A stretch of DNA of 63,700 nt, filler included, from Dugesia japonica (GCA_001938525.1; 6 parts of 6 records of this genome joined end to end with filler, not necessarily neighbours in it), one strand, 5' to 3'; positions 13,408-49,659 are shown, counted from the first letter of the whole stretch. Made by a program: numbers and translations. The notes: generated by a model from the sequence alone, not told the origin.

Positions 13408-14130
13408 AAAATATTACGAATTTTTTATGTATTCATTATTTCTGAAAATTTGATCTAAAGAAGACAATTCGTCAAATAATAGGAAATTAAGACGTGTGCT
13501 TTAAAGAGTAATGACATATTTATATAGTCAAACTAAAATAAATAATTGTCAATGTTAAATATTAAAAATATCGATTGTTAAACTTTGGACTTAAGGAAAT
13601 TCAACATTTCATACTTAATGGCCTAATATTTGTTAGTATTAGAAATTTATCATTGTTTTTCGTTTTATCTTTATTATAATTATTAAATAACAGTGTAACC
13701 TTGGATTTTAAGCACACATAATTAAATTAGTTTTTTTTACTTTTAATAGATAACATGATTTTTTTTAATCATTTCGATGTAAAATTCGTTTATGATCAGA
13801 ATAAATGAGCTTCTGTTACTCGAATTTCTTAATTTATTAAAGTCACAAGTATTAATTGATTTCTATTTATTTGAATTTTAATATTAACAGTTTGATGTGT
13901 TTTGAAAAATAATAAACAACACCCCGAAATGTACTGCAAGCCTTAAATACATCAAACAAGACAATAAAAGAACAGAAAACTGTCAGAATTTAGATAAGTA
14001 TTCTCTCATTTCCTCGTACAAACCTTTTTCTCTTATTTCAATTTATTACTGTTAGTAAATGTAACGCAAGATTTCAGTACAAGTATAAATTTTTAAAAAT
14101 CTCATCTAAAACTATACTTTTACAAATGCA

Positions 14131-14254
14131 ATTATTGTGGGAATAATTGTTGGACTTAACCATTGATTGAATTTGAGATTTCATTAAAATAAAGAAAAAG
14201 CTTCGATCCAAATAATATTTTGATCGAAGCTTTTTCTTTATTTTAATGAAATCT
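14131..14254. repeat. Dispersed fold-back repeat, probably a Penelope-like pseudo-LTR (copies at ~24060-24210, 48735-48792, 49376-49519)
   Basis: Shared tgtg(g/a)gaataattgttggacttaacc...gagatttcattaaaataa sequence. Perfect 33-bp inverted repeat at 14176-14208 / 14222-14254. The 24060 copy carries a hammerhead core. Confidence 0.75.
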
Positions 14255-17500: not shown

Positions 17501-17568
17501 CTGAAGACTTTGAATCATTCGAAGTGGTTTTTGTAGATGTTTGTGGACCGTTGAAGGAAACAACATAA
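14558..17568 (+). mobile_element. Ty3/gypsy LTR retrotransposon, degenerate gag-pro-RT-RNaseH-IN, 3' truncated
   Basis: CCHC knuckles (CWNCNKVGHMRWEC), SPWNTP, LCLDFRRLN, MPFG, YLDD, FILDTNAS, HRNADALSR and integrase CHAG...CKWCQK. Multiple stops and frameshifts. Confidence 0.95.
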
Positions 17569-17603
17569 ATCCTGACGAAGACAAGGTCGAAATATCGATT
17601 TGT
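17565..17603 (+). ncRNA. Minimal type I hammerhead ribozyme (Penelope-type)
   Basis: ataaatc-CTGACGA-a-gac(aag)gtc-GAAA-ta-TC-gatttgt: intact core, stem I 7 bp, stem II 3 bp, palindromic stem III, AUC cleavage triplet. Confidence 0.75.
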
Positions 17604-24067: not shown

Positions 24068-24101
24068 GTTCCTGAAGAAGACTATTTTCGAAAATTTGAA
24101 C
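24068..24101 (+). ncRNA. Hammerhead ribozyme, slightly degenerate, at the start of a dispersed-repeat copy
   Basis: gttc-CTGAAGA-agactattttc-GAAA-attt-gaac, followed by AATAAA. Confidence 0.6.
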
Positions 24102-24209
24102 CGTTTTACAAATAAATTTTATTCTGATCGAAGCTATTTCTTATTTTAATGAAATCTCAAATGCGATCAAAGGTTAAGTCCAACAATTATTCTCACAATA
24201 ATTGTAATT

Positions 24210-26830
24210 ATAAAATCCTTTTCATGATCATTTAAATTACGAGATGCATAAGCAATAACAGTTTCTACACCATTTCTTGAAAATTGACTCAAAACAGCAC
24301 TAATTGCATTGAAACTCGCGTCTATATCTAATATCATTTTATTTTGAGGATTTGGAAATGCCAAGATTGGAGAACTACATAATTTTTCTTTCAGTAGTTT
24401 AAAACTGCTGTCACATGCTTCAGTTCACTCTACGACTTCTTTTGATTCAGTAATTGCTGCATATAATGGACTGGCAATTGTTGCGTAATCTTAAATAAAT
24501 CTACAATAATAATTTGTTAATCACAAGAAGGTTTGAATTTGGGTTGCACATTTTGGAATAACAGCTTCTTTTGCTTTATTAATAATGTCATAATTTGTTT
24601 CAACACCTTTAAAACTTATTGTATGACCAAGAAATTTGAGTTTTGAAACACTTAATTTACATTTTTCAGGATTAATTTTTAGATCAGATTGTTCAATTAA
24701 TTCCAACACATTTTGTAAATGTTTATCATGAATTTCTTAATGTCTGAAAATGTCATCAAGATAAACGATCACTCCACTAAATAACATCTTCTAAAAAATG
24801 TTATGTATAAATTCTTTAAATGTTGCAGGAGCGATGCATAATTCAAACGGCATGCGATTGAAACAAAATTGTCCCATTTTTGTGCTGAAAGCTGTTTTTA
24901 ATTTTAACTTTTCAGTTAATTCAATTTAATAATATTCCTCTCCTAGATCAATTGATGAAAAAAGAAGAGCCATTTAATGTTTCCAATAACATATTTATAT
25001 CTGGAACAAGAAATGAATATTTTTCAGTTACCGAATTCAATTTCCTAAAATCAAGGCACATTCTTAGAGAACTATCTTTTTTTGGAACAATCACTAATGG
25101 AGAATTCCATGGACAAGGTTTTATAACATTTGCTGGTAACAGATTTTGTATTAATTCTTCGATCTTGCCTTCTAAGTGCATTGGTTGTCTGCTTGGATTT
25201 ATCAATACTGGTTCTCCTTTAGTTTCTATGTTATGCATTGTCATATTTGTTAACCCTACATCAGATTTTGAATTCATAAATATGTGCTCATATTTATGAA
25301 GTAATTCAATTATTCTATTGCTGGCATTTAGCCTGAGTGCATTCATTTTTTTATTATCAAGTTTGTTATTTTTGCATATAACATCTTTTGAATCTATGAA
25401 ATTGATCTCTTTTATTCCCATTCCAAACGNNNNNNNNNNNNNNNNNNNNNNNNNNNNNNNNNNNNNNNNNNNNNNNNNNNNNNNNNNNNNNNNNNNNNNN
25501 NNNNNNNNNNNNNNNNNNNNNNNTAATTCTAGCTTTTCCTATGCATTTTTCACTTTTCTCAGAAAATACTCAGAAAATTGAATTTTAGGTGAACCAATCT
25601 TCTTCCAAATTTCCTCACTTATCACTGAGACAGACACTTTAGAATTCCATAACATCTCTACAATAATTCAATTACAATTTACACTGCTCCAATTTATATC
25701 ATCACGTTTTTGATACATAAGTTTAACATCCGGTCTCCTATCAATATCTCGATTTTTCTCTTTAAAATTCATTAATGCAACCTCACCGACTAGATGAACA
25801 CAGCGGGTTGCTAAACATTTTTTCATTATTTTCTTAGATATTTATTGTATCATGTTCAAAATCAATTAAGGAGTCACCTATTAAAAACCTATTTTTGAAA
25901 GAACAGTTTATTCTTCTGTGGTTTGTTTCTCCACAGCAAAATCAAGCACCATGCTGTAGGAATTCTAGTCTTGAAGGAGCTTTACAATAACATCTATTAT
26001 AAATTTATGTTGCTACATATTTCAGAGAATGTTTTGGAAATTCTAGTTTTTGTTCTTCATTTATATCTTTTAATTGTTGCATATTATTACCAATCCTTGA
26101 ATCTTTTCTCGGTTTTCTAGAAATTGTAGAATATTTTGGAGTATTTTCTTTGTGATGAAATCTGTAATTATTTCCCATTTTATTAAATTTTGATTAAAAA
26201 GCTGATCTCTTGACTGCACTTGCATAGCTGTCGTTGACAACATTTACATTACTTTTTGCTACAAATTTATCAACGTTTGCAGCCGATTCTCGACGTTTTT
26301 CGTCATTTATTTTTGGTTGGAGTGCAAAGGATTCTTTAAGTTTCTCACTTCTTAAGCCATTCAGAATAAAAACTCTTGATATTTCCTCTGGTGATCTTTT
26401 GCTTTCAAATATCTCGTGAAAAAGCTTTTTTATACTTATTTCAAAATTCCGATATTTTTTATCAATTCTTAGTTTAACTAATGATAGATCTGTTATTTTG
26501 TCAACCAAAGATTTATCATTAATTAATGTTCATCGAAACCAAGTTTCACACTTTTTATTTGAATTGAAATCCTCGTTTGTGTTTGTTTCTTGACACAATT
26601 TCTTCGTATCGCCTCGTAATAGCATGTCAAATACAAAAGAAATCCCCATTTGATTAAATATAGCAAATTCTTCTACATCCAATCTTTTGCAGTGTCTGAA
26701 TAACCATCAAAGAATTTAGGCTTCGGAATCAGCATTTCTTGCGTAGCTTGTAAAATATTTTTAAAAATCTTTTGTCGTTCTTCTTTCCTTTGCCTAGTAA
26801 ATGGCACTAACTTCTGCATGGTCGCCAGTT
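24210..26830 (-). mobile_element. Ty3/gypsy element (second family), degenerate gag-pro-RT-RNaseH
   Basis: PBS-like TGGCGACC at ~26820-26827, PWNSPLVIVPKK, MCLDFRKLN, VYLDD and ILDIDASFNAISAVLSQ. Confidence 0.9.
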
Positions 26831-27877: not shown

Positions 27878-30800
27878 TGTTAGGTAAATTTTCAATTGGT
27901 AATTCATTTTGCAAATCATTACTAATATTTTGAGACATCATTTATTTTATTACTACAAACTATGTTTTATAATATAAATAATATCAAAATACAAGCATTT
28001 CAATATTAATATTCAGATAACTCAATTTCTATTAGTGAAATTATAATTTAATAATTATTTCCTCATATCCCCCTTTTTAAGAAACTTCCTAAGTATTCCA
28101 TATGTCTTTCTAATCGCTGTCCATTTTCTACTTGTACTCGCTTGTACCGCCTTTCATGAATTTTCTCAATTATTCGGTAAGGTCCTTCAAATTTGTCTTG
28201 ACTTTTATTTCTAGTTTCTACTTTGATAAGTACTAAATCGCCCACTTTGAATTCTATTTTAGTTATCTCGTCAGAAATGTTTTTTTAGTTATATCTGAAA
28301 CGTCTGACTCGTATCACTTTTCTCCGCAAATTTTCTTTCCAAAAACAATCTTTCTCTTTCCAGTCGTCTTATGTTTTGTTGCGTTCATTGTAAATTCTAT
28401 TTCCCGGTAAAAGACCTGCCAAATCTGTTGTCTTTCTTTACTGAAGTGTTGTATTAATAAAATCTCGAATTGTCCTGAACTGTCTCTCAATTTCTCTATT
28501 TTCATTATAATGATAGGGACTCGAAAAGCAAAGTTTAATATCTAACTTCAGTGCAAACTCTCTCATAACTCTGGATTCAAAAGCTTTTCCACAATCTAAT
28601 CTTATCTCTCTTGGACATCCAAATCTCAGTATCCACTTTTCGAAAGTAGCTTTTCATATTGTTTCTTCGTCTTGTCTAGGCAATAGTATAAGAACCAGAT
28701 ATTTACTGTACTGGTTGATTATTCCATNAATATATTTTTTTCGTCCACTTGTTTCCCGCATTGTCCCATATATATCTGTGAATATCATCTCAAATAAATT
28801 GGTAGCTTCTAAACTCTTTGTCTTTAGTTGCTGTTGTTACTACTTTGGTGTTCTGACAAATTTCACAACTACGAAATATCTTCTGTATTTGGCTCCACAA
28901 GTTCTTTGCAATATATTTGTTTCTCATAATTTCGTGCACCTTTTCAACGTTTGCATGACATAATAATTTATGTATTTCTTATATTGTTTTATGTACTTTG
29001 TCATCCGGAATTTTCATTTTCTTGATCAAATATGTTTCCTCCGAAATATTTAAATTTTCTACTTTTTCCTTTTCAATCATGTTTAGTATTCTCATTTTAA
29101 TCTTCCTTTTCTTGGCAACTTCATGCGACATTTGAAACCTCAAATCTTGGTCTAGATAAGATATCTGCATTACTATGTTGAATTCCTTTTCTATATTCCA
29201 AAACCANGTGTAAACTGCTCAGATAATTAATCCATGTCTAGAATTGTGATATAATTGCTTTCTTCGTCGTCATCATGAAAGTTAGAGCTTTGTAATTTAT
29301 TCTAAGAGTAAATCTTCTACCGTGCAAGTAATGTTTGAAATGCATCTAGAAATAATAAACAGCCAATAACTCCTCTCGTATAATGCAGTATCCCTTTTCA
29401 TAACTTGTCAATGAGTGTGATCCATAGGCAACAACTCTTTCTCTTCCTACTTTATTTCTCTGTGAATATACTGCTCCAATCGTATGAAAACTGGCATCTG
29501 TATCTAATATAAATTCTTTGTTTATGTCTGGAAAACACAATATTGGTGCAGTCATTAGAGATCTCTTCAGACCCTTAAAGGTATCATTTATTTCATCTGT
29601 CTTTTGATTTCCTTTCGTAGTTTTCTATAAACTTTCTGTAATAATGACAAATCGCAAAAAACTTCGTAACTTCTTCGCACAGTTAGGTTTGCCAAATATT
29701 CTTATAGCTTCTATTTTAGACGGATCAGTTTTAACACCATCTCTGCTAACTATGTGTCCAAGAAACGTGATATCACTTTGAAGAAACTGAAGCTTTTCCG
29801 GAATTATTCTTAGACTAGCCTTCATTATTTCCATCAATAATCTTTCAATTACTTCACAGTATTGATTTTTATTGTTGGAAAATATCAGGATGTCATCAAG
29901 ATAAACCATGATTCCATTGATTCTACTACTTGTGTCATGATCTCTTGAAATATATCTCCTACCGCTGCAATGCCAATTGGCATTCTATTAAAACAACATT
30001 GTCCGTGGTTCGTAGAAAATGCCGTTTTTTCTTGAGATTCTTCTTTTAGCACCACCTGATAATATGCATTTCCAAAATCTATTGAACTGAAATATTTAGC
30101 TTCATCTAAGTTGTCCAGCATTTCATCGACATTAGGCATCAGAAAGGCTTGTCCTTTCGTTACTGCATTCAACTGTCTGAAATCCAAACATATTCTTATG
30201 TATTTCTTTTCCTTTTTCTAAACACAGATCAATGGAGTATTCCATGGAGAGTTGCATTTCCGGATAATATTATTCTCAAAAAGGTTTTGGATAGCTTCTT
30301 CAATTTTAGATTCTAAGTTCATTGGTGCCTATACGGTTTTCAATTGATTGGTTCACCACTTGTGATTATTTTATGTCTTGTCAGATGTATGCGTCCTACA
30401 TCCAAATAATCTCACATAAAAGCATCTTCTTTACTTTCAATTATTTTCAATAACCATTGATCCTCTTTAATCTTCAAAATATTTAAAACTCTTGTCAATC
30501 ACTCACCTTGTTTTTATTTGTTTTCCGAATTTTGCTTCAATATTGCAAATATAATTTTCGACTTTTTCATCCCTTTTGCCATCAACCTTTTGCATAAGCT
30601 GGTATCCAAAATTTTTCTCCATATCTATTCCTCCTATCAGATCTGATGTCACTCTTTCAGCCACTAAGAAAGTAATCTATTTGCAAACGTCATCAGTTAT
30701 CAGTTACGGCTCTAACTTTTCCAACAATTTCAAGTGTACTATTATTTGCGAAACGCAATCTTTCATCACTCTTTTCTAAATTTACTCGTAATTTATTAAA

Positions 30801-32271
30801 ACAACTCAAACTCATCACGTTAATTCGAGCCCCTGTATCTAATATGCATTCTACTTTATTTCCTTGAATTGATACCGTAACACTTGGTCTGCCTTGCAAA
30901 TTATTGTACGAAATAATTGTTTTTTTTTCTGCATCAATTGTTCCAACTGATTCTACTTTTCTATCATCCGCAAAAATTTAGTCTTTAGGAACCTGTAAAC
31001 TTTTATGTAACTTTTCCGATATCATCCCACTTTTCCACCACTTGAGTATAATTACTAACTTTATTTAACAATGAATGGTTTCAACCAACTTTTCTACGGG
31101 TGGAGCCCTGCATTTTGGGTACTGCCTTTTGAAATCACTTTCATATACTTCCTTATATCCATCGTTTGTACTTATATCTTCATCTTCAATCGCATGTACT
31201 GGATTATATCGGTTTCTTGATCTTTCTGCAGTAGAAAATTTTTTACTTGTTCTTTTTGCTTTCACTCTTCTGATCTATGCCCACCATTTCCACATTGTTG
31301 ATACCTCTGTTCTTGACATAACCTTCTAATATGACCAACCTTTCCAGAACCAAAACATTTTGTTGGTTTTTTGTTTGGACAATCTCGACTTATATGTCCT
31401 TTTTTATGACCACTCTAGCACTCTTCCACTTTTTCGGTCGGACAATTTGCTTTAGAATTACCGGTCTTATGACATGATCAAAATTCGATATTTTGTTTTT
31501 CTTTTCTTTGTTCCACATGTCTATTTACCGTATGATTTACAGGTTTTTGATAATTTCGATTTGTAACTCTCGCGTAACTTCTAACTTCATCAACTTGATC
31601 TCTATTTTTCTCTACTCAATCTTCTAACGTCATTGTTTCTTCAATTTTTTCTATATTCTCTCGTTTTCTCAAAGTCACTTCTTGTTCAACTTTTTTGTTT
31701 TCTAAACAATATTCTATAATGTTTGCTGCCATTTTTCTTCAGTAAAATCTTTGTTTGTAAATAATTGTTTTACTAAATCTTTTACATTTTTAAAATAAAC
31801 TTGAATCTCTTCATTTCCACGCCAGTAGTTAATCAAATTTTCAAAATCTTTGATTACATCTTTCTTTTTCTCAAATGCCATACGTAAACGAGCCTGAAAT
31901 CCTTCAACTTTTTCTAATGTCTTTGCATATTCCTCCAAACAATCTGCATCTAACAAATACGAGATTATTCTCTCCTGTTGTTTCACGTAGGCGATGTTTT
32001 TGGCTTCAAAATACAATTCACACCTTTTCATAAGTTTCTCAATATCATCTCCTCTGCTGAACACATTAAGCAATAATCTCTCTGTAATATAATCGGTATT
32101 TACCGCTGCCACCATGTTAGGAAATTTTTAATTGGTAATTCAATTTGCAAATTACTACTAATATTTTGAGACATCATTTATTTTACTACTACAAACTATG
32201 TTTCATAATATTAATAATATTGAAATACAAGCATTTCAATATTAATATTTATATAACTCAATTTCTATTGG
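27878..32271 (-). mobile_element. Near-complete compact (~4.4 kb) Ty3/gypsy retrotransposon with both LTRs
   Basis: 3' LTR 27878-28065 (TG..CA, 188 bp) matches the 5' LTR 32115-32271, which is cut by the spacer. PBS TGGTGGCAGCGGT (tRNA-Leu type) at 32102-32114. PPT AAAAAGGGGGA at ~28068-28078. Motifs ILDTGA, YLDD, DTDAS and GPY. ORFs are disrupted. Confidence 0.95.
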
Positions 32272-32371
32272 NNNNNNNNNNNNNNNNNNNNNNNNNNNNN
32301 NNNNNNNNNNNNNNNTTAATTAATTAANNNNNNNNNNNNNNNNNNNNNNNNNNNNNNNNNNNNNNNNNNNN

Positions 32372-32665
32372 GAGATCAGTAAAACTCCATGACAACGGTG
32401 TAGAATTTCAGGAGATCCGTGAGTCTTTCTGGTAATAAAATGAAAGAAATCATATTTCAGGAGGTCTATAAAACTCCACGACAATACAATGAAATTAATC
32501 AAGTTCTATGAGATCTGCAAGACTCCAAGACAATACAATTAAATTAATTAAATTTCGGGATATCTGTAAGATTCCATGACAATGGCATATAATTTCAGGA
32601 GATCTGCGAGACTTCAAAATAATCAGTTAAAATAAATCAACTTTCGGAAGAATCACCGAGATTTC
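32372..32665 (+). repeat. Degenerate tandem repeat, units of 40 and 49 bp
   Basis: Six units beginning (g)gagatct/gaggtct...actcca, spaced 40, 49, 49, 49, 40. Confidence 0.75.
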
Positions 32666-32924
32666 CCGACAAGAAGAAGAAGTGGATCATGTTTTAGAAG
32701 ATAGATGCAACATTGTGACAATAAATTGAGATGAATCAAGTTTCAAGAAAGCTGGTGGCTCTCTCATTTGTCAGATTTAAAGTGACACAATGAACAGGCA
32801 AAGCGATGATTAAATAGTTGAAGAAACTCCATTGAAAGGTGATCAGAATATGGAAAACAAGATGTGACAAAATGTTCAATTGCGGTAAATTCAGGTAAAT
32901 CAAATACTATCATCATGAAAAAGC

Positions 32925-35900
32925 ATCAATGACAGCAATCCAATTTAAAATTGAATTTAATGAAGAGACGTTTAGCGGTGATATAGAAAATTGAATAAAT
33001 TTTTGTTTAACTATGAGATCTATACCAAAGTCTGCGAGTGGAACTAAGTAGAAAAGATGACTAGAATATTATGTTATTTGTCAGGAGCTGCAAAAGAATT
33101 GTATTGGGTCAAAACTCAACACATAGATCAGGCTCTAAAGGCTTGGAAGGAGGCTAAAAAAATTTTGTTAGACAATTTTAATAGCGAAATATAACCAGAT
33201 CAAAACTTTTGGAGGTTTACAAATAAACAACGAGCAGATGGAGAGTCTTATCAAGCTCATCTATGTGGGGTAAGACTGCTGGGTCGTCTTGCATTGGACA
33301 CCAGCTTGACTGATAAAATTGTAATGGATAGTTTTATCAATAATATAAACAAACCAAAAGTAAAGAATTGGGTAAGAATTAAACAGCCAAAGTCCGCAGA
33401 TGAAACATTGCAGTTGGCATTAGTAGCAGAACAAGTACAAAAAGATGATTGTAATCAATTGATGGATAAATTAGTTTATGCAACAGTCAATGGCCAATCT
33501 CAGGAAAAAGATGGCAAACTGCTGACATAAAAATATGAGAGTAAAAGAGATGTTGAGTTAAAAGATATAACGTCAGAACAATTACAAACATTGCAAATTA
33601 GAGCACAGCAAATGATTAAATGTAAAATATGTCGAAGTAGCACGCATACTATAGATAATTGTAGAACTATGTATTTGAGTTGGGATAGGTGTGGAGCCAA
33701 AGAACATACAACGAAAATGTGCTACAGTAAAATTTACTCACATGAAGCAGTGGTAACATTAGTAAATAAACGGACTGCATCACGCGAAAAAGTACGATGT
33801 AGAAAATGTTGAAGGAGTACGCACACAACCAGTCATTGTCAAGTTAAGTATATTTATTGTGGCCGATGCGGTGCAAAGGGTCATGTATAAAATAACTGAA
33901 GAAGTAAATTGAGTTGCAAATACAACGCGGAACCGATAGTGATTGATTTATTAAAAGTTAAAACAATTAAGTCAAATCAAAAAGGATTAAAGCAAAAATC
34001 AGATATAAACCATGATTGGGAGAAAAGTAGTTATGCAGCGTGCGTTGATTTGGATATTCAATGTGATAGTGATTAACAACTTGAAGAGAAAGAGGAGTTA
34101 GAGAAGCGTTATTTGTATACCAAACAATTCCGGGAGAGAAAAGATAGTCGATACGTTAAGAGAATAAATGAGACATTGGAGAGAGACGAAATATGTGATT
34201 CAAGTAATTTTTAGAAAACAAAACAAATAAAACAAAGAACCAAAGATCTCAATAAAAATTTTGCAAATATCAAATGACAATCAAGTAATCGAGCCGTAGC
34301 AAATTTATCTACAGGAAGAAGTATCGGGTCAAGACTAACAGTCAAGATTTCTGTAGACGGACTAATGATGGTAGCATTCATTGACACTGGAGCAGCGATA
34401 TCAGTTGTGTATTGTATCAAACTCAAATATCGACGTAGTATTGAGACAAAAACCAAGTTATTAGCAGTGGGAGTACATGACCAGCCAGGCAAATTGAAAG
34501 GAAAGGCGAAATGTCGAATAAGCTATGGTAACAGGACTGTAGAACAACAAATTTCGATAATTGAAACGAATAAAGATTTTTTTATGGGGACGGATCTAAT
34601 ACCCAAGTTGTTGTCAGATTTTGCGCTAGAGTTCAAGTCACTACGTTTTAAATCAACCGAAAAAGAAACGATTATAACATGCAACGGGAATAATTGTGGA
34701 GAATATGAAAAACGTGGCAAGAACAAAAGGATAGTAGAAAGAATGCAGATCAATATGCTACAGGTAAGCCAATAGGGAAAAAGTAAATTGTTATTGCATC
34801 CAATCTCATCTGACAAAGATAATGAGACGATTAGGCAAGTATTTGAATTACAAACGACGATGGAAGAAAAAAATAATAAAGAGGAAAATAATTTGTTATT
34901 AGATGTCGCCGAAGTGCTAATAGCGTTTAATGAAGTTAAACCAAGTTTCGATAGGTTACATCAAACTTTGCTGGAGAAATTGATCACAGATCGAGGAAAG
35001 CAGTTGATAGAATTGGATATTTAGCCATTTAAGATAAAGATATATGTGGAACAGCAAGTAACCCGTCATGTACGAGTACATAAAACAAATCGATGGTGCG
35101 ACATTGCGGAAAGAGTCAGATGCATAATAAATATGGTTGGAAAAAACCTGTATTTCGGCATGATAGAATAGAAGATGATTCGATAGAGCCTGTGTTGTTA
35201 AATGTATTATTGAGTAACTCTAAGATGGGTCTATATGTTAAAACCAAACAAGATCATATCCAGATTGGTGGAAAAGCTGAGAATCTCCAAAAGAAAGTTA
35301 AACATATTTGGAAGTGAGTGAAAAACAATATAGAGTTGGCATTTCACCAGGAAGTACTGCAAGTGATAAACAAGGAACAAAGGCAGCAAATGGAAAGCAC
35401 GGAAGCAATCCATAAAAGGAATGAGAACAATTTGATCGAAAAAACCAGAAAAGAAGGGAAGTTAGATTATGAAATACAAATTTTAGTAAACATTATACAG
35501 AGGACTACAAAGAATTTGCAAGAAATCACAAGCGCATCTCATTATCATTTGGCACAGCAAATTAAGGACGAAAAACGAGCAGATTTGGAAAGAGGATTTC
35601 GTGGTTTTAAGAAACAAAGAAAGGCAACTGATATGATTATTACGCTTTTCCTGTCATTGTGGAAGATGTGAACAGATGATGAAAATATTACTAGAGCGAG
35701 TAGCAAATTAGCATCTCCGATAGAACCTCCAGAACATCGACAGTTATCGTTGTGTCAATATTGTGGAAGAAGTAGATGTTGGTGGTTAAAGATTTGTTTC
35801 AGATGTCAAGCAAAAGGACACGTCTGGAAGAATTGTCTGGTAGGAAATAGACCAAGCACTATAAGTGAAAATCCACAGGTAAACAGATGTAACTCTAGAG

Positions 35901-36490
35901 GAAATAAATGAAAAAATACATGAGGTTGCAAATAATAGAAGCGGTGAGATCAATGGAGCAGGTCACCATCAAGAAGCTACCAAGAAGAATAATTTATACA
36001 ACCGTTATCCAGAAAGAAAACCAAAAGATCTATGCCCAGTAACAATTCCAGGTGGTGAAGTACTGATGAAAATGACGAGAACAAATGACAGAGAAAACAA
36101 ATGCATACTAGACACCGGGGCGAGTAGATCGATAATCGATTTTAAAACAATAGTTAAAGAAGACGTAATAAGAATTCGTAAAGAAAAAACTATATGCTTA
36201 CAATAACCGGAAAGACAATTGACGGAATTGGGGAATTGGATTGTTGGATATGTAATGGTGACTTCAAGTGTATGTATTCAATAAAAGTAATCGAGAACTC
36301 AATGTTTAAATGTGTTATTGGATTAGACCTGTTGAGAACAATGTTTCCAGATGGTTTAATAGATATGAAAAGATTCAAAGAAGAGATTAGTAGTGACTCT
36401 GCTAAAATGGAAGGTAGGACTAAATCATATACAAACGAAAACGAAACATGGAAGGAATATCAGGAAAAAGAGATCGACCAAAACTGAGAA
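32925..36490 (+). pseudogene. Retrotransposon gag (capsid + 4 zinc knuckles) - aspartic protease 1 - coiled coil - zinc knuckle - aspartic protease 2
   Basis: Capsid-like W..AKKILLDNF..RADGESY..FINNI..QPKSADETLQLA. Knuckles CKICRSSTHTIDNC, CGRCGAKGH and CFRCQAKGHVWKNC. Proteases FIDTGAAIS..FMGTDLI (~34378) and ILDTGASRS..VIGLDLL (~36105). Many stops. Confidence 0.8.
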
Positions 36491-37581
36491 CAAATTTATC
36501 GAAAAACAAATCATGTTTCAAATCAGAGTTTTGTGTTTAAACTACGGCAAACAAAACAAAGAGAAGAGGAAAGTCCGAGTTGCATTAGCTGTGTAAATGA
36601 AAATGTCAAAGTAGATCTGCCCGTGTTAGAAACGGTAGTCAAAAATTTGCGTTTTGACGGTACAATTGATATACATAGTCAATTAAAAAATGTGGTAAAT
36701 GTGTTGCATGAAGCAAAAACAAAGATGAAATTAATACGGGCCGTATATATCAAAGGCTGTACATTGTTACTAACAGAACAAGAGAGACGGTGAGTGACAC
36801 AAAACGTCAGGTGCAAGGCATCGATGAGGAAGTAGATTTTTCGAAAGAGGGAAGTAATTTAGGAGAACTGCTATTCAAAGTACGCCGAAGGAGAATGCAC
36901 CAAGAACTAACTAATAAAAAGAAAATAATCAAAGAGATACAAGGAGACAATAGAGTATTTATTGAATTAACAAAACGAAATATACAAGTGACGTTATCAG
37001 ACGGGTCTAAACCAAGTCTGGAAGACTCGTGTCAGGCGAAATATGAAGAAAATGATACTGCGGAAGAAAATTATTTATACGCGATGTCAAAATCAGAATC
37101 AAAGGAACATATTTACAAAAATGCATCAGAAGATCTAAATGTAGCAATAAAGACGTCATTACATATAAATTATAGAAAAGCAGTGTATGCTTCCTTAACG
37201 ATGATACCTGTATCATTAATTATCTTTTGGCTGGTGGCGTTAACAACAGTAGCATAGGTAACACCAAAACAAGGGACAAAATTATACGAGATCAATCAAA
37301 CAACCGTAATGTCAAACGAAGCGAGTAAACAAACGAAAATAAAGATGATCAAAATCGAGAGAGATTGGCCAACAGGACCAACTATTCTCATGAACCAGAC
37401 GAGTCACGATAATCGGAAACTTTTAATTACAGTGACAGTAATGGCGGCATTAGCATTTTCAGTGACTATAATAATTTTGGTAATGACAATAAATAATGAA
37501 GCACAACTAAAGCTCAATGTGCCAACGGATCAGTAAATTCCTAGGAATGCGTGTCAGATATCGATTAAATGTGACAAGTGG

Positions 37582-38990
37582 ATGTATGCGGTACTATTAG
37601 TAATTGCATTTAAAGTGATAAATAGTAAGGAGTGCTATAATTATGAGAATGTTCATACAAAACATAGAATACACATAATACGTTATAATACTGGAATACA
37701 AACGATATCTAGAAAAGAGTTAAAAAGAGTAACGTCAATCAATGATCGCAATAAAAGAAAAAATAGCAAAATTGCGTATAAATGGATGGAACCAACCATC
37801 TCAGTTAAGGACCAGCCAATTGGTGCAGTAATACACTGAGAATTTGGAGTTTATCGATCGAGGTCTAAGGCAACCGACAACAGAAAGTAAAGCTCGTACA
37901 ATATAACAAGGAAACAGGAGATTTATATTGAGACGAGGATTGGCAACTTATTTGCAAACGGAAGACAAAATTGTTTGGATTATATTGTGTTTTCAGTATA
38001 TATTATCGCACCGAATTTCAGATCATGTATATAACTCAAGACGGGAAAAATCCAGTATGGCCAACTAACCAAAATGACTGTCCGAGAAAACAAGCAATAT
38101 ACGTGTCACAGTTGTAGAAAATCGGATCGAATACGATAATCGGAGTACGTTGGAAATGACGAGCTTAGAAAATCAAAAGACAAAGAGAAACATTACAATT
38201 CGGGAGATGGAGTGAAATTGGCATGCAAATAAATGCCTGGAAAACGGAGAACGCGGTGTACACGTTTACAATTACAATAAAATGAGGTAATAAACAAAAA
38301 ATACGATTTTGACATTACAATGAATTACGAAAATGGATAAACGGACAGTTTCTACAGGAAATTGAATTGTGGGAAAGTCAACAAGATTTAGTAATAAAAA
38401 TTAAAAAGAAGTTTGGAGTGTGGATTGAGTTGGAATATATTGCACATTCGAGTTGCCACTGAGCAACAAGTCGTTAAAATATAATATTACAATGACAACA
38501 ACTAAACCAACAACAGAAAGATTAAAGATGAAAACGTATCCAAAAACGACAACAACTTTGACAACAACAACAATGAAGAGTAGTACAAGAGCAACAAGTG
38601 TGCAAAGCAAAGTGGGAAACACTACGACAACGAGGTATGTGAAGACGACAACTGAAAGCGGGCAAAAGAGAATTTCATTAAATGTATTAAATAAACAACA
38701 AGAGAATTTTATTGATAAATGGATGAAAAAGTTGGTAAAGACCGGTTCACGAAGGATATTTCCAGCACAAGTCAAGGTGCTTTGAAAACGAAGCAAAGCA
38801 AAAATGAAAATGAAGGAAATTCGTCAGCAGGACTCAGTGGTGAAGTAGCGGGCGTCATTAGGTTACACTTATAACGACGTTAATTTGTAAAGCGAAACGA
38901 GGGCAGTATCCGAGACTGCGACTAGAACCGGAGTTAAGAGAGTTGACGGCAAAACATTTGCATCCGCCAAGAGAGTTAGTGCGATCGGGA
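37582..38990 (+). pseudogene. Degenerate type I membrane glycoprotein (signal peptide, Thr-rich stalk, TM, basic tail); env-like position
   Basis: N-terminal MYAVLLVIAF, then TTTKPTT..TTTTLTTTT, then GLSGEVAGVI/VTLITTLICKAKRGQYPRL across a frameshift. Confidence 0.5.
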
Positions 38991-39924
38991 GTTCTTGAGG
39001 GGGGAACTGAGTCATTGTGGAGTTACTGAAGAGAATAGTGAGAGTAAAGTTGTAAATAAATTACTTGAAATGTAACAGTAAGGTACAAAATTTAGTTTTT
39101 CAGTAGCTCGAAATTTAAAGTAGAGCCTAGTTGATTAAAATCAAATTAAAATATGGAGTAGTTGAATAAATTTGAATTTGATCTGGATTACCATAGTGTT
39201 TATCGTACTATTTAGTAAAAATGGAACAGAAACAAATGCCAATGAATGAACATCTAACAGTAAATAAAGATCTTAACGACATCAACAGAACAACTACAGA
39301 GCAACCAGAACAAACATATACGCAGATGCTTAATCAACCTTAAAATCGTATGGAAAACATGTTGGATGAACATTGCAGAAGCGTAATGAGGAATTCAAAT
39401 GTATTAAATGAGCAACTACAAAAGACCCAACAATTAAACGCAATACTTGTGGAGAATCAAAATTTTCATGTGATACAGATACACCGATTAAATAAAATCG
39501 TGTAGAACCAGAGAGGACAGATTACAGAGAATCAGAATTTTGAGTGGAACTAATAAAATAGTAAAGGATCTAAGACACCAAGTGGAGGAGTTACATACCT
39601 ATAATGCAGAGCTGATTTTATCCAAAATTAATCGACTATCGAGTGTATCCGCCCTCTTGAACACTATCGTGAAGAATGAGAGTATATTGTATTGAGAAGA
39701 GAGTAATATATGATAGTAGATGCCAAAATAGAGATTATTTGAAAACATTGTGCTTAATAGTAACTGTATTACTATGCAAAAAAACTTGTATTGTAAAAAA
39801 TCAAAAACAGTAAAAATATAGTAAAATTAGATTTAATCAGTGCGTAATCCAAATAATTCAAATTTGTATATAGAATGTCTGAAGGATTTCAAAGATTGTG
39901 AAGTTGTGTTGTGGAGACAATAAT

Positions 39925-40395
39925 GATGGAGAAGTCGAATTTAGAACAGAAATCAATCGCAGAATTAAAACAGATCAATCAGAGTATGAAGCAGAATAAT
40001 GTATCGTATTTTAAGGAAATATTTGGTTATCAAAATGCTATTTTGAAGATAGTCGAGTATTAACGATGCAACAAAAAAATAAAGACGATAAAGAAGTATT
40101 GAATGAATATTATTGGACTATCAGCGAGCAAAGATTGGGAAATGTTCAATTTTTCCATGAGGTGCAAAAGCTAATCAAGGAGATGAAAGAGTTTGAGAAG
40201 ACGGTGTCATTAATATGCAAGACAAAGATTGAGAAAATGATGAAGTTTGGAGAATACTAAGTGGAAGCAGTTTCAGTATTAAACTTACCTTGTGCACATG
40301 AAGCAGTTTGTAAGAAATGCCCTAAAAGAAACGAGTTCAAACGATGTGTGATATGTAAATGGTCAATTGAGGAGTGGAATATGGTGTATCTATGA
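39925..40395 (+). pseudogene. Coiled-coil protein with a C-terminal C3HC4 RING finger (IAP/MDM2-like spacing)
   Basis: Reading through the stop at 40258-40260 gives LNLPCAHEAVCKKC-x8-CVICKWSIEEWNMVYL*. The first CxxC appears mutated to FGEY. Confidence 0.7.
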
Positions 40396-42849
40396 GTGAG
40401 ATACCGGTAAATTGTAAATAAATTCAGTACAGGACGTATCTACCGTACAGTAAAAGTAACAAAGTAAACAACACTAAACATATTGTAGATACCAATCTCA
40501 ATTAAAAGTTTGTTAATCAGTAAATTTTATAATTTGTAACTTCCAATGTCTTATTATGTACATATTCGATATTAAGCGTTACGTTAATTTTATTAAGAAA
40601 ATGGCAATCCAAAATTCAAGCAGTATGATTCGACAACGAGAAGCAATTAGACAATATTCTAAAAGAAGCAATAACAGTACTAATTACCAAACCCTCCCAC
40701 TCAATGAAATAAAGCCTTATAAGATCAAGGAGAAATTGAGCACAAAGACGCCCAGGGGTAAGATAGAGCAATAGCAGTTGAGAATAGTCGAATTAAAAAC
40801 CCAACCAACGGAAATAGAATCACGAGTCCAATGATGTAATGTGTGCACCCAGAGTGAGAGTGAGTAAGTAAAAAATATGTGTAAAGAAAAATCTTTTGGA
40901 AAAACTTATGCACTGAAAGAAAAGAGACGATACTTAAGCTGTAACAAGAACTAAACCACCTTCGTAAGCGACCAATCAAGCAACTCAAAGAGTTAGAAAC
41001 TGACATTAAGTGGCAGCAGAAGAAAATCAGAATGTTAGAGAAAACTATCGAAAGGAACAAAGAAGCTCGCATTACAAATCAACAAGCGCAACAAGAAAAA
41101 ATGAGTCAAATGCAAAAAGATAATGAGCGACTGATGAGAGAAAACCTAGCATAGAAATTAGAGAAAAAACAGAACACGATAGACATACAATATCTGGAAA
41201 ACGCAGTGAAACATCTTCATGATGAAAATGCAGGTCTCAAAGAAGTCCCAATCCGAGTAGTGATTCTCTCTCAACAAGTCAATATAATGAAGGTAGAAGA
41301 CACCTTCTACACTTATAAAACCAATGGACGACCTGTAGCCCCACAAATTAGTCTACTCGATCAGCGAGCCATCCAGAAGAAGCAAACCCAACAACAGTCC
41401 TCAGTCTAATCGATCCAGTGCATCATATCCTTCGACTTCAACAAATGAGCAATCGCAATGGCCATATTCAGCGTCCAAGAAAGAACTATTTTGGGGCCGA
41501 TGAACTCTTCATTTTGAGCAATTCCTCACTGCGTCTAAACTATGTAAATATCGTTCGAAATTATGTGTGAAAACTATTTATCTTTGTGTCTCTGACAATT
41601 TATATACTCAAATGTTCGCTGACAGTTCTATACTGTTCATTTGGTCGTCTCAGTGTATTTTGCAGGTCTATGGTGCTTATTTTACCGAATTTTTCCCAGT
41701 CGAAGGTCGCCTCCGAATTCCAGTCAGTCCATGAAAAGATCCGCGCTAGTGAAGTTACTAATTTTCTGTTGATTCATGTTTGTGCTTAATGAGTGATTAT
41801 ATCAAAATTTCGACATTTTAATTAGCGATCCACTATTGTGTTTTATTAACTGATATGCACGCAAGTTTTATAATTATGAGATGCTGTTAATGTAAATTTG
41901 ATTGGAATAATATATTTTAAAGTGTTATTTTTCTTCTTATTTCTTATCTGTGTTTATTTTATGACCTATAAGAGTCTTGGTTGAGGGATCTTTTGACCAG
42001 TGTAATGATGCAATGAGTAATGACCGAGCTCCAGTAAATCTAGTTGAGAAATCGGAAGACGAATGAATAAAGTTATCCCAACAATACAAGTGAAATTGCT
42101 GTATGATAATAAAAGAGCACAAAAGGAATTCAATGAAAGAAATTCCGGGGCGGAATTTTTTCAGGGGCCCCAGTATTTTGTTTGACTAGAACATATGTGC
42201 CGGGGATCAAAACTTATAAAAAGAGAGTGAGAGTAAATAAGAAAAGAATGGAAATTGAAAGAAAATATGTTGAGAAATGAACAGTGCTGGACCTAGAATT
42301 TATTATTATTATCTGTATTAATGTTATTATAATTATCATTATATAATTATTATATGAAAAAGAAAAATTGGGCATAGAGGATCCATATTTGAATTGCAAA
42401 AATGTTAATTTATTTGAGATAGATATTATTAAAAAATATGCACTAAAAATAATAATACTATACTATAATATAAGTAAAGAGATCTCTACGACCTTATTTT
42501 ATTAATATAATAAAGAGAAAATTCTCTTTTAATATTATTTTGTTACAATTTTCGTTATTATTTCGGTAATGAACGAAAAATAACAACAATTAGTCCAGGT
42601 ACTGTATGTTTATGGTTTTCCAAAAGAAAATTTAAACAAAATAAGTTTTCTCATCGATTTTCTTTGAAAAAATGCATAAAAATCATTAATTCCCTAATTT
42701 AAATAAAAATCTGAAAAATCAGTAAAATTAAAAAAATCATAAAAATCAATTAATTTAAACAAAAAAAAACAACATTAAAACAAAAAATATTATGTCTGCG
42801 CAGGAAATTTAAATATGAAGTCTACCCGGAAGTTAGTTGTCATAGAAAT

Positions 42850-43166
42850 AACCTTGACTTACTTTCATTTAACCTTGGCCTACATTTACTCGACCTCGAA
42901 ATATTACATCAATCAGAACTGAGTTAACTAAATCAATCTGACCTTGAATTATTTCAGCCAATGAGAATAAAGTATACTAGAACACTGACCTAGAAAAATT
43001 TGACCTTAAGATTTTCCACCAATGAAAACCAAGTATACTAGATCACTGCCCTTAAAAATTCGACCTTGAATTATTTTAGCCAATCAGAATCGAGTATACT
43101 AGATCACTGACCTTGAAAAAATTTTCTTCTCGGCGGGGGGGTTGATCCAGTGCGCTACTATCTACT
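42850..43166. repeat. Candidate Polinton/Maverick terminal repeat
   Basis: Ends CCAGTGCGCTACTATCTACT (reverse complement AGTAGATAGTAG). Three to four ~60-bp subterminal repeats with TGACCTT and CCAAT. Confidence 0.55.
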
Positions 43167-44115
43167 GACCTGTTATGCGGGTTAAAAAAGTTAGAATGTT
43201 ATTTGAGATTAATAACGTATCTGGGAATAAAATGTTGTGTGACATTGATAAAATATTTGAACGGAGAATAGGTTAAGTGAGCTGATTACACGTTGGGAGC
43301 TCGATTATGATCTTTGGGAATTATATAATGAGAAGAGATCTGCTTTAATAGTCCTTAGTGAAATGTTCCTTTCTTGGTTGATGTAGTATGGTGTCTTATA
43401 ATTTAATTTTGTTTATTTTAAACCTGATAATAAACTTATTAAGATCATATGATATTTTAATTAATTTTGTTTAAAGTAAATAATCATTATCATTTTATCA
43501 ATTGGGCGGTTGTCCTCTTGCCCCAAGCTAGTACATTTTAAACTGATAAATCATTTTTCTTCAAAAAATTTTCAAACCAGCAATTATTTCCGATAAAGTT
43601 ATTTATTGGGAGATATGGCAATTTTAATTTCTTTTTCGCATAGCGTATTAAAAGTAACCAGTCATTCGTGGGTATTAAGCGCAGTAGTTACCTTAAGCTC
43701 TTTTTCTAGCTCTAGAAAGAATGCTGTTCTCTCATACCTCATTCGGAATGTTGTTGATTTGTTTCCTACTATACATATCTTATTTTCCTGTTTTCCCAAT
43801 TCCATAACATCTTGCTGGTTCTACCACAATTTCTTGCTGTTTTACTAACATTTTTGTTATTTTATTTTAAAAGTTCAAATGTCTCGAGGTTTTCATTTGT
43901 ACTTAATTACTTTCAATTCATGGGATAAAAGTATAGAAATATAAAATCCACAAAATTAATAAATCTATAAACCTTTAAATGTTTTAAAGTAATTATAGAC
44001 CTACAAAATACAAACNNNNNNNNNNNNNNNNNNNNNNNNNNNNNNNNNNNNNNNNNNNNTTAATTAATTAANNNNNNNNNNNNNNNNNNNNNNNNNNNNN
44101 NNNNNNNNNNNNNNN

Positions 44116-47100
44116 AATATACTATCAGTATTTTTTATTATTAGTGGAAATCCACAATTAAATGATCCATCTTCAGTTTCAATATCATACACATCTTCAA
44201 TACCTTCTCTTAAATATTCAGTTTTTTGTACATTAGTTTTTAGATTTGATTTTATTTGTGTTGCAACATAATCTGAATATTTTATTGTAATAGCTAAATT
44301 AATTCCTAAAGATGTTACTAAATAATACAATTGTGAAAAACATTTTTTATCATTTTCTTTAAAACTAATTGTTTTAGATTTTTTATTTCCATTCATTAAA
44401 TAGTAACCTACAAAGAACCAATATCTNNNNNNNNNNNNNNNNNNNNNNNNNNNNNNNNNNNNNNNNNNNNNNNNNNNNNNNNNNNNNNNNNNNNNNNNNN
44501 NNNNNNNNNNNNNNNNNNNNNNNNNNNNNNNNNNNNTTGATTGAACTATATCATAAAATTCAGAATTATAAACTTGTTCATAATATTTTTTTATTTTCTT
44601 TAATAAATATAAATCATTAATATAAATTGCTTTAGGATATTTTCTAGATATTCCATCTATAAATGCTTTCTTTGATTTTCTACCTCTAGGTTCTTTATCA
44701 CTTAAAATTTGTTCAATATTTATTTCATTATTTTGTTTAAATATTTTATTGTGAAGTAATTTAGTTTTAGTTGTTACATCTATAGGTTTTATATGTTCAC
44801 CTTTATCATTTAACAGTGAATGATCTTGTGTGACATCTACAATTCCCATTGTAGTTATTACTCTATAAATCTTTTTATTTGTTGTGTGTTTAATTACTTT
44901 CTTTAATTTTACCCAATTACTTTTAGTCCAAATTTCATAATCATCTGGAAAAGAATAATATTTATCATCATAATTATAATAATAAGGTTTTGAGATTTCA
45001 GATATCTTTTTAATTATTACTTTAATATTTTTTCTTAAAATTATTGGAGTGTCAGCTGTTACACTATCACTGTAATGTATTTTATAATTATCATTTCCAA
45101 TTAATGGATCCATTTGATTGTATANAAAATCATACATTACTTGTTTAGCATGTTCAAGTATTGTGAATCCAATATATGGAAATTTGTTATATTTTAATTT
45201 ACCTTTTTCCATGTTCATTGCTGCAACTTCTGCTTCATTTGAATCATTTATTATAAAAATTTTACTTGATTTAAAAGTTGTTTTACTAGCAAAATTTAGA
45301 TAATCTTTTTCATTGTCAACTATTTCTATGTTACACCTATTTCTAATATTTTCTAATGTTTTACCATAGAATGCATTTAACATTAGTTTATAAATGTAAT
45401 CACTAAACACATCATTTATTCTTTTTGATTCTTTTCTTAGAGTTATTAATTTGTGAACATGATTTTTAAACCATGTAGAGGTTGGCATTTTAATTTTTCT
45501 ATGTATTGTTATTAGTTTCATGCCAAGTTTTAAATAGAGATCTAATGTTGATCCTAAACATACATAGTTTTTCTTGTNNNNNNNNNNNNNNNNNNNNNNN
45601 NNNNNNNNNNNNNNNNNNNNNNNNNNNNNNNTTAATTGGTAATTGCTTAACATCTCAGGTCTAATATTTATTCTGTCTGGTGCTAATGGGAAATATTTAG
45701 TTTTGTTATGAATTTCTGGTGGATAATCAAGATCAACTTCATAAATATAATTAATGTTATCATTTGAAATTTGATATGTTAAATCTGTCATCTCATATAA
45801 TTCACCTGTAGGTAATGGTCTAGTCATACATGATGCATATGATGAATTTTCATCTAAATATTTTATAAATGTATCTTCTAATAAATTTTCAATATAATCA
45901 TTTGGAATAAATGTATGAGTGCTCATCATTTTTATTAATTCTTCATTCATTTGTTTTGTATATGGGTCTTTATTTTTATTATATGAAAATACTTGACGTT
46001 CACCACATACACCAGAATATCCACCTCTAATACCTTCTTCAATTAATAAGAAAATGTCATGTTTCAGCTTTAGCATATTTCAATTTAATATTAGCATTTA
46101 ACATTCCTGTTTCCAATGCATAACCTGGTGCTGAATAAGAATAACTTGGATCTAATTTTAAAATATTATTTAGACATGAATCTCTAAAGTTTTCTAAGAA
46201 ATCAGTTAGAATTAAAACATCTAACTTCATATTATGTAACATGTAACACCACATATTTTCATAATTGCATATATCATTCATAAATGTTTCATATTCTTCG
46301 TTAGATATTTCTTTTTGGGTTAATGTGTTAAAGAAATCATCTTTTGTTGGAATTTGATTTGATTTTAATAATGTTTCAACTTCTTGAATATTTTCACCTT
46401 TTACATATTCATAAGGAAATAATGCTTTTTTAGGTGATAAATAAAATGAATTTAATATTGGATAATTATTAGATTGAGTTAAAAATTTACCCATTACTTC
46501 TACAGATGTAAATGGAAGTAATCTAGCTGAGTCTAAAAATTTAATATTTTTAAATTCNNNNNNNNNNNNNNNNNNNNNNNNNNNNNNNNNNNNNNNNNNN
46601 NNNNNNNNNNNNNNNNNNNNNNNNNNNNNNNNNNNNNNNNNNNNNNNNNNNNNNNNNNNNNNNNNNNNNNTAAAATGGAATAAATAAATTTTTAATTGAT
46701 AAATCATTTTCATTACAGGTGTTACATGCCCAACCTCTAAATTCACCATTAAAATGGTTATGATCTTTAACTCGATTATCTATTAATCTGTTACAATAAT
46801 AACATTTAGTGTCAAATGTATATTCTGGATGATTTATACCTGAATATGTTTTAAATAGTTTGTTATCTTTTATTTCATTTAATTCATTATTAACTTCTTC
46901 TAAAAATTAAAAGAATTCATCATAAATATTTTCACTTAAGAATTCATAATATTTACTTTTTAATAATTGTGGATAATCAGATTTTCAATAAACACCTAAA
47001 GATAAAGCTTTTTGTTTTTTAGTAATAGAATTTGTATATGTTTCAAAATCACCAAATAATATAAATGGTATTTTATTTTTCTGGTAAAATTTATTAAATG

Positions 47101-48373: not shown

Positions 48374-49659
48374 TTTCTATAGGAATAATTTAATCTTATG
48401 AAGTTTTTTTTCCTCTTTAATTTTTATATTATTCCTCTTAAATGTTATCATGTTTGTATTTTCTACAGAATAAATTTGAAACATGTCACTTTGTATATTT
48501 TTGATATGTCACTTTGTGTATTTTACATTTTCCATTNGATATTTTACATTTTACATTTTTACATTAGGTACGGTAATATTACCCTTAGGTTAATTCGTAC
48601 TTATTCTATTACTTAAAAAATAGATGATGATGAAAAATAATTAAAATACATCATATCTGCAACATTACTAATTCTTTAAATTTAATTTTTATTTTTATTT
48701 AACTTTTATTGGGTGATATAAATAATTTTACAATTACAATTATTGCGGGAATAATAGTTGGACTTATTCATTGATCGTATTTGACATTTCATGAAGAGGA
48801 CAATAGTTGAACAAAACCGATTATCTTTAAAACAACAATTTTATTTGATTGAAGTCTTTATTTCAATAATATAAACAATACTTATAGACATAATCATTTA
48901 ATTAATAAATACATGCTACCGTTTAACAACCAGAATTCTTTTATTTTTAAAAGATATTACATAGTTGAATTTACAATTCAGAGTTTATCTTCATCATTAA
49001 GTGTTTGTAATATTAAACTAAGAATAATAATGCATTGTTTTTTCCTATTGATAATGTATGGCTATCTATACAAAAAAGTACAATACAAGAAACAAATAAA
49101 CAGGTCACGATATAATTTAATAATAATAAAATGTGCTACATCTTTTAAATAATGTGTTATTTAAATAAATAACATAAGATGTGAGTTGTCAATTGAAATA
49201 TACGATAATTAGACAGATTGTGTGGGTTTTAAACATATATAAATACATGTTGAAAACAATACAGATAAATGATTTTTATAAAAAATTTTTAAAATTAAAT
49301 TTATGATTGAAAGATAGTTTTCAGCAAAATCATTTGATATATATTCATAGATATTATTAAGTATTCTTAATATAATTACAGTTATTGTGAGAATAATTGT
49401 TGGACTTAACCATTGATCGCATTTGAGATTTCATTAAAATAAAGAAAAAAAATAAAATGTATTTGTAAAGTGTCGAAAATTTGAATTTGTTTACAAATGA
49501 ATTTTTTTTGATTGAAGCTTTTTCTTTATTTTAATGAAAGTATTCTTAAGTTTTTATTTTATCTGATAGATTCTTCGGTTGGTGTTTTATGTTTAGTAAT
49601 CCAGACCATAAATAATAATCAAAAGGGAAATAAAAAATAATAACAAATATATAATAATT

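Follow-up and report, generated by a model that had tools for sequence, protein, structure and literature searches.

A decayed, pol-less Ty3/gypsy-type element with two protease modules and accessory genes in Dugesia japonica

What kind of retroelement carries a Ty3/gypsy-type gag, two aspartic proteases, a membrane protein and several further open reading frames (ORFs) without pol? A locus of this composition, visible over ~10 kb, lies on the + strand of a 63,700-nt stretch of Dugesia japonica DNA (GCA_001938525.1; the whole stretch, filler included, is called the window below), starting at position 32372. Our best reading, held tentatively and with a little less than even confidence, is a single old copy of a complex Ty3/gypsy-type long terminal repeat (LTR) element that was already pol-less at insertion, that is, a helper-dependent derivative.

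Results

A decayed coding track with gag and two protease modules

Three-frame translation and frame-path analysis revealed a single decayed coding track on the + strand from 32929 to ~39020, with 22 stops and nine frame changes in 2034 codons (z = 15 versus 60 shuffles; 0–4 stops per 500 nt all along, ~1.1 stops per 100 codons). Six fixed frames contained 19 stops in 1722 codons, compared with 299 stops in twelve alternative frames. Simulated stop loads of 0.64 per 100 codons at 5% substitution and 1.32 at 10% place the decay at ~8%, which is only a rough value because the frame path avoids stops. Decay and strand bias are even along the track, which runs in order from a Ty3-type capsid through four zinc knuckles, protease 1 (PR1), a knuckle pair, protease 2 (PR2) and two hydrophobic segments to a type I membrane protein:

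32372..32928, + strand: non-coding leader (coding signal z 0.1), 5' end cut by a gap; 49-nt tandem repeat at 32434-32583
32929..33450, + strand: Gag capsid domain, Ty3/gypsy type (Pfam Ty3_capsid E 6e-4 over 32985-33533)
33621..33896, + strand: four zinc knuckles in two pairs, at 33621, 33681, 33798 and 33858
34320..34660, + strand: aspartic protease 1, FIDTGA (DTGA motif 34377-34394; Pfam Asp_protease E 1e-4)
34661..35752, + strand: stop-poor coding stretch, helical or coiled-coil-like by eye
35753..35836, + strand: second knuckle pair, degenerate at 35753 and CCHC at 35795 (Pfam zf-CCHC E 0.05)
36060..36390, + strand: aspartic protease 2, ILDTGA (DTGA motif 36105-36122), split over two frames
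36391..37536, + strand: coding stretch with two hydrophobic segments at its end, 37195-37254 and 37426-37485
37582..39029, + strand: decayed type I membrane protein with signal-like start, ectodomain, stalk, anchor remnant and short tail

The track contains a Ty3-type capsid with a CCHC nucleocapsid (NC) and, after gag, a retropepsin-type aspartic protease that is present twice. Two of the four knuckles in the first cluster have full CCHC spacing and two are degenerate; the second pair is paralogous to this cluster, with an alignment score of 53 that none of 1000 shuffles reached. PR1 matched an outside protease, P0004, by tblastn (E 6e-14) as well as Ddi1-type protease structures (E 0.003). 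Both parts of PR2 align to P0004 too, at scores reached by 3 and 0 of 1000 shuffles, respectively. The two proteases are strongly diverged from each other, with a pair score of 51 versus 146 and 88 to P0004.

The stretch following PR1 (34661..35752) had no family match and no relatives, and did not appear as reverse transcriptase (RT), dUTPase or integrase in any test. Its single-sequence structure model was unusable (predicted local distance difference test, pLDDT, 40), the fold search gave no match at E <= 0.001, and a homologue search with 35165-35905, which covered longer proteins only, returned none (0 of 644 candidates). A ubiquitin-like domain considered at 35025-35260 was unsupported (P 0.3), and the idea of a counterpart in protein P0032 also failed. 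The motif [IV]N[MVI][LIVM], defined post hoc, occurs four times in the track versus 0.67 expected (P 0.004), five times in P0032 and 0–2 times in six other proteins.

The element begins exactly where a run of N (32272-32371) ends, and no further N occurs until the next gap at 44016, although the window holds 35 N runs overall on an AT-rich background (GC ~24%). Five joins (13308-13407, 23045-23144, 32272-32371, 44016-44115 and 55318-55417) have the form N44-TTAATTAATTAA-N44, which is an assembly marker and not biology.

Much of this content had been named in an earlier note made from the sequence alone, and its capsid-like gag, four zinc knuckles, FIDTGA protease, divergent ILDTGA protease and two hydrophobic segments all recur here, the remainder of the second protease lying in another frame. 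The single knuckle that it placed between the proteases is the CCHC knuckle at 35795, which becomes one of a pair with the degenerate copy at 35753. Its start coordinate of 32372 is merely the edge of the gap, and the ~10 kb that the gap leaves visible do not show the element to be 'giant'.

Absence of pol

No RT, RNase H or integrase was found by Pfam in 15 frame pieces on both strands and 24 segments at E up to 10, or in the six frames of 42300-44015. Eight queries drawn from the ordinary gypsy copies of the window matched other gypsy copies there at E 1e-10 to 1e-61, serving as a positive control; within 32372-44015 their best matches were E 0.013 for integrase and E 3.3 for RT. Across 462 tiles of the element, the best values were E 0.94 for integrase and E 0.56 for RT, whereas 114 control tiles gave 5e-4 and 4e-32. 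Pfam detects rve in a decayed neighbour at E 3e-12, so decay is not by itself enough to account for the absence. The frame also stays open past each protease, into non-RT sequence. The earlier note's failure to see any of the three enzymes is thus reproduced with controls that work on neighbouring decayed copies.

A putative integrase vestige after PR1 (ITDRG...AERV) resembled a DDE core and was rare in shuffles, a post hoc comparison, but was not supported by Pfam, the PDB or the neighbouring integrase (P 0.97).

Membrane protein and 3' region

The membrane protein has a stalk at 38483-38680 composed of 45% Ser+Thr, an anchor remnant at 38830-38900 and a short tail with a YxxL motif, of the kind known as an endocytosis signal. 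It matched neither the Pfam fusogen families, including F and gB, nor PDB sequences, with a query that is decayed and split over frames; its structure model (pLDDT 35) was unusable. Upstream, the single in-frame stop between the two hydrophobic segments may be original or a product of decay. The Atlas search gave no usable match for 36712-37254, and an HCV_env match at 36488-36790 (E 0.025, in 1 of 24 segments) was taken as chance.

Beyond the track lie three separate ORFs, with starts at 39153, 39875 and 40601 (z 5.3), in a region with more stops than the main track (2.3 per 100 on the best path). The features of the 3' part, including two sites resembling a polypurine tract (PPT), are as follows:

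38985..39011, + strand: PPT-like site A, similar to the PPT–LTR junction in the ordinary gypsy neighbour, and overlapping the membrane-protein ORF at its tail
39030..39152, + strand: AT-rich spacer, with TTGTAAATAAATT at 39050 and TTWWTCAGT at 39096
39153..39695 (end approximate), + strand: accessory ORF 1, stop-poor frame, no family match
39875..40395, + strand: accessory ORF 2, helical region and C-terminal IAP/MDM2-type RING (Pfam zf-C3HC4_3)
40601..41409, + strand: accessory ORF 3, coiled-coil-like by eye, stop-poor frames, no family match
41410..42140, + strand: probably non-coding 3' region (z 1.3 versus shuffles), where the compositional strand bias reverses
42145..42175, + strand: PPT-like site B, not a pure purine run and missed by the junction pattern
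42176..42590, + strand: candidate 3' LTR, its end guessed from the ending TAACAACA; no partner copy in the window

The RING of accessory ORF 2 lies at 40288-40362 and scored just above the Pfam cut-off (zf-C3HC4_3 E 3.5e-6; 27.1 bits versus 27), its first Cys pair having decayed. The best PDB matches were the RINGs of cIAP2 and cIAP1, at weak E values of 0.036 and 0.077, and NCBIfam gave a weak RING match only. The ORF contains no BIR, and a homologue search with it, again covering longer proteins only, returned none (0 of 74 candidates).

A search pattern built from the junction of PPT and LTR in the neighbour matched five places over both strands of the window: that true junction itself, 38995 and three others. 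Of the two candidate sites, the better one for a gypsy-type PPT junction is at ~39000, not at 42150. Attempts to pair the sequences behind sites A and B as LTRs with each other, or with the LTR of the neighbour, failed (P 0.6, 0.64 and 0.31).

Several short motifs recur at the ORF boundaries. An AT-rich spacer precedes each accessory ORF and holds TTWWTCAGT 42-88 nt upstream of the ATG; TTWWTCAG occurs four times in the element, three of them in the accessory spacers, and none of 20000 shuffles reproduced all three placements (a post hoc test). Within the window, TTGTAAATAAATT is found only at 39050 and 40412, each just past the stop of an element ORF, and AGTGAGAGT only at 39037, 40853 and 42226, all in the 3' part of the element. 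A splice-donor-like site, the sole one of its strict form in the element, lies at 32893 just 5' of the gag ATG, and shuffling the 100 nt ahead of the ATG produced the pattern in 1.25% of cases (P 0.0125, post hoc). The two visible splice acceptors of the host end in TTTTAG. We compared the TCAGT motif only with the invertebrate initiator consensus. Together, the motifs suggest that the accessory ORFs may have been expressed from separate mRNAs, either by splicing or from initiators; a planarian initiator has been reported (PMC10558129).

Of the earlier note's claims on this region, the RING and the mucin-stalk membrane protein stand, the latter with a signal-like start at 37582. For the proposed enveloped endogenous retrovirus-like element there is a type I layout, with no match to a Pfam fusogen family or a solved structure from the decayed sequence. 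The PPT-like tract at 42145-42172 exists as sequence, but is not pure purine and is missed by the neighbour-modelled pattern, and the LTR-like TATAAAA-GAGAG segment lacks a second copy in the window.

Relatives of the element

With the gag–PR1 frame as query, phmmer searches of 1.84 billion representatives returned 28 matches at E <= 0.001 and one at E <= 1e-10, none above 33% identity. The best gag match, P0002 (E 2e-15, 25% identity), forms one gypsy gag family with seven others. Within this family, P0018 continues into an integrase zinc domain (H2C2, E 2e-20) and P0032 has a long post-gag extension without a Pfam match. At their N-termini, the gene models P0006 and P0030 have a helical region plus RING that match accessory ORF 2 (tblastn E 0.014 and 0.005), and its pre-RING part alone aligned to P0030 at a score reached by 5 of 1000 shuffles. 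P0030 carries the gag type of the top matches. The RING ORF lies 5' of gag in P0006 and P0030, and 3' of PPT-like site A in the element. These protein searches fit the undescribed family proposed in the earlier note, although the comparison left Repbase and Dfam outside.

Neighbouring features in the window

An ordinary compact gypsy copy occupies 27878-32269 on the - strand, with an LTR pair 92% identical over 156 nt, an integrase, a PPT and a PBS-like (primer-binding site) TGGTGGCAGCGG that overlaps the gag ATG; its 5' LTR runs into the gap 32272-32371. Further decayed ordinary gypsy copies or fragments lie at 14600-17600 (+), 24200-25540 (-), 61800-63150 (+) and ~50000 (-), those at 16 kb and 62 kb being 79% identical. 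Downstream of the element, a tandem array of three 61-nt units with a G7 run after it (42935-43180) is probably where another repeat ends.

On the next scaffolded contig, and for that reason possibly not host-integrated DNA, 44116-46076 (-) encodes a protein-primed, Polinton-like family B DNA polymerase (Pfam DNA_pol_B_2 E 4e-11). It carries an intein (insert ~45065-44125) at the YSD...TDS catalytic motif, as indicated by TIGR01445 intein_Nterm, which scored no lower than its cut-off, and by similarity to the split intein of the Nanoarchaeum polymerase (E 1.4e-7). Elsewhere, a short dispersed repeat resembling a miniature inverted-repeat transposable element occurs at 14114-14254, 24088-24216, 48722-48807 and 49371-49539, with a palindromic copy at 14176-14254, and 10116-10979 (+) holds exons of a host EML-family gene (Pfam E 4e-81) in which a 54-nt GT-AG intron keeps the frame open. 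Searches of the window for tRNA genes and Rfam families returned nothing.

Discussion

Origin of the element

The earlier note's proposal, that a gypsy-type element rich in extra ORFs was internally deleted or is non-autonomous, agrees with the gypsy-type gag and proteases, the missing pol and the even decay. Our preferred version, a helper-dependent derivative, places the loss of pol before insertion, because a chance deletion would usually be expected to leave one end of pol and none was found. It is further supported by the continuous stop-poor track, by the frame that stays open past both proteases, by the lack of nested LTR pairs and long inverted repeats, by the post hoc [IV]N[MVI][LIVM] and TTWWTCAG motifs, by the resemblance of the RING ORF to the N-terminus of P0030, whose gag family has pol (P0018), and by TelKA2n, a precedent for env-bearing families without pol (PMC5408684).

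From the gene content we infer how such an element might have worked. The polyprotein would have been cut by its own proteases at the repeated I/V-N-M/V/I-hydrophobic sites, and Gag and the proteases would have made and matured particles, with Gag packaging the RNA. RT and integrase would have been provided in trans by an autonomous gypsy relative of Burro-like design (see below). The 3' ORFs may each have had a short mRNA, either spliced or started from an internal initiator at TTWWTCAGT. The IAP-type RING could have worked as an E3 ligase with host cell-death or defence proteins as its targets, and the surface protein may have served attachment.

Several results weigh against this reading. 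No helper was found, and the ordinary gypsy copies of the window are far from the element in the capsid tree (22 rows), where the element sits in an open fork beside the P0002/P0008 clade; the protease tree (9 rows) lacks resolution. Comparisons of the unassigned segments with the unassigned parts of the P0002 family reached P <= 0.02 in just 2 of 160 cases, both of low complexity. The divergence of PR1 from PR2 is too great for a recent duplication, the sequences behind the two PPT-like sites are unlike each other (P 0.6), and the single copy displays no LTR pair, PBS or target-site duplication, its 5' end, and with it any view of the 5' LTR, falling in the gap. The integrase-query match at 35556-35708 (E 0.013) also counts here, although it is weak and was not reproduced in the tile comparison. 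Finally, each of the nine frame changes could hide a deletion junction, and two of them lie 125-170 codons past a protease, where pol would start.

This last point leads directly to the main rival, which we consider rather unlikely: an autonomous complex gypsy element, with gag, two NC–protease modules, pol, surface protein and accessory ORFs, whose pol was deleted once and later, in this copy. Besides the frame changes, the age of the copy (~8% decay), the presence of pol in the best-scoring gag family and the decayed Burro fragments reported in Dugesia japonica (PMC6431247) would all suit such a history. Against it, no remnant of either pol end is visible, and both breakpoints would need to fall in short spacers. 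One copy cannot decide between this deletion and a helper-dependent derivative. A composite of two or more separate elements is quite unlikely; here gag–PR1 would come from one, the second NC–PR2–membrane ORFs from another with its end at site A, and the accessory cassette would reach to site B, all brought together at this locus by nesting, tandem insertion or recombination. It would account for the PR1–PR2 score of only 51, the two PPT-like sites, the richer stops of the accessory region and a trinucleotide profile that, at 34700-36400, is slightly nearer to ordinary gypsy copies (0.08-0.12) than to the flanking parts (0.09-0.11), but the modules are separated by no non-coding break, LTR remnant or second capsid, decay and strand bias are even, and the rare motif AGTGAGAGT is shared across the 3' half. 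Nested insertions were also the case that the earlier note named as refuting it; a search of the element's contig returned neither an LTR pair nor a long inverted repeat, and the track is uninterrupted by any nested LTR pair.

Fragmentation of the assembly, with its 35 N runs and an element that begins exactly at a gap, raises the improbable option that pol lies in or past the 5' gap, or was skipped by a short-read mis-join of related copies. The 550 nt before gag are non-coding, however, and 32372-44015 holds neither N nor the internal near-identical repeats that would favour a mis-join. Gag and protease without pol is also the usual pattern of domesticated retroelement genes, which the locus fits; we nevertheless regard a once-domesticated and now pseudogenized host gene cluster as highly improbable, given the lack of introns, the retroelement-like strand bias and ORF packing, the position among transposon debris and the absence of relatives above ~33% identity.

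A bolder form of the helper-dependent reading, which we think unlikely, is a family of 'satellite' retroelements that dropped all replication enzymes and carries a gene set larger than that of most autonomous elements. Non-autonomous LTR elements usually shrink. Besides a capsid, such a family would have two NC–protease modules that do different jobs, a surface protein of its own and three further genes, expressed separately as a cassette that includes an IAP-type E3 ligase and may lie inside a long LTR, the similar RING ORF being 5' of gag in P0006 and P0030 and 3' of PPT-like site A here. Particles, attachment and control of the host would come from the element itself, which would parasitize the RT and integrase of its helper. 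If such a pol-less lineage exists, with its two proteases, its surface protein and its genes that modulate the host, it would be a case of labour divided between retroelements. Should only this copy have lost pol, its parent would still be a complex gypsy family that has not been described, and the finding would matter chiefly to repeat annotators.

Comparison with known systems

In the literature searched we found no precedent for a gypsy polyprotein with two knuckle–protease modules or for the same gene set, a weak negative because subscription papers and repeat libraries lay outside. Errantiviruses share with the element a gypsy-type gag and protease together with a type I membrane protein ORF, and are described as carrying gag, pol and an F-type or gB-type env, in the order GAG-ENV-POL in flatworms (PMC13524379); the element, by contrast, has no pol, and its decayed membrane protein showed no similarity to F or gB.

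Retention of gag with absence of pol, as found here, is the hallmark shared with TR-GAG and TelKA2n-like families. TR-GAG elements, plant LTR retrotransposons that encode gag, lack pol and are mobilized in trans, have gag as their one ORF (PMC8704663), whereas the element spans ~2,700 codons with proteases, surface protein and RING. TelKA2n, a non-autonomous env-bearing LTR family of bdelloid rotifers, is likewise gypsy-type, with most of pol gone and an env-like ORF kept; according to the same account the C-terminus of its gag is missing too and its env is of the canonical F type, and rotifer ORF3s include transmembrane and coiled-coil ORFs expressed from spliced messages (PMC5408684). The element differs in its whole gag, doubled proteases, four 3' ORFs and lack of a known fusogen.

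The closest plan is that of Burro/GYPSM1, giant gypsy-type elements known from dugesiid planarians, with a total length above 30 kb and long LTRs. Burro resembles the element in its gypsy-type multi-knuckle gag and long polyprotein with non-standard domains (PMC6431247), and in its membrane protein, accessory ORFs, IAP-type RING and tandem repeats (PMC6431247, PMC13465017). As published, Burro consists of one ORF of ~4,900-5,100 amino acids ending in protease–dUTPase–RT–RNase H–integrase, with one protease before pol and an F-type env between gag and protease (PMC6431247); it carries BIR, BCL2, MATH and ankyrin domains (PMC6431247, PMC13465017, PMC8532177, PMC13238120), and Burro1 encodes B-IAP (PMC13465017). 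The element, in contrast, has ~2,030 codons, two NC–protease modules and no pol, and its membrane protein lies 3' of both proteases and has no F-type match; between gag and either protease, the coding frame contains no hydrophobic segment. Pfam found no BIR, BCL2, MATH, ankyrin or ubiquitin-like domain in six frames and 24 segments, a search that distant matches may escape. The IAP-type RING is present at the level of type (zf-C3HC4_3 above cut-off, cIAP structures at weak E). Despite the similar plan, we do not file the element as Burro because a single protease followed by pol, an F-type env before the protease and the BIR, BCL2, MATH and ankyrin domains were looked for and not found. The P0002 gag family, with three knuckles, the P0032 extension and the P0018 pol, fits Burro by published description only (PMC6431247). 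If the helper-dependent reading is true, the Burro-type strategy of captured IAP-like genes would extend to a second, distant lineage.

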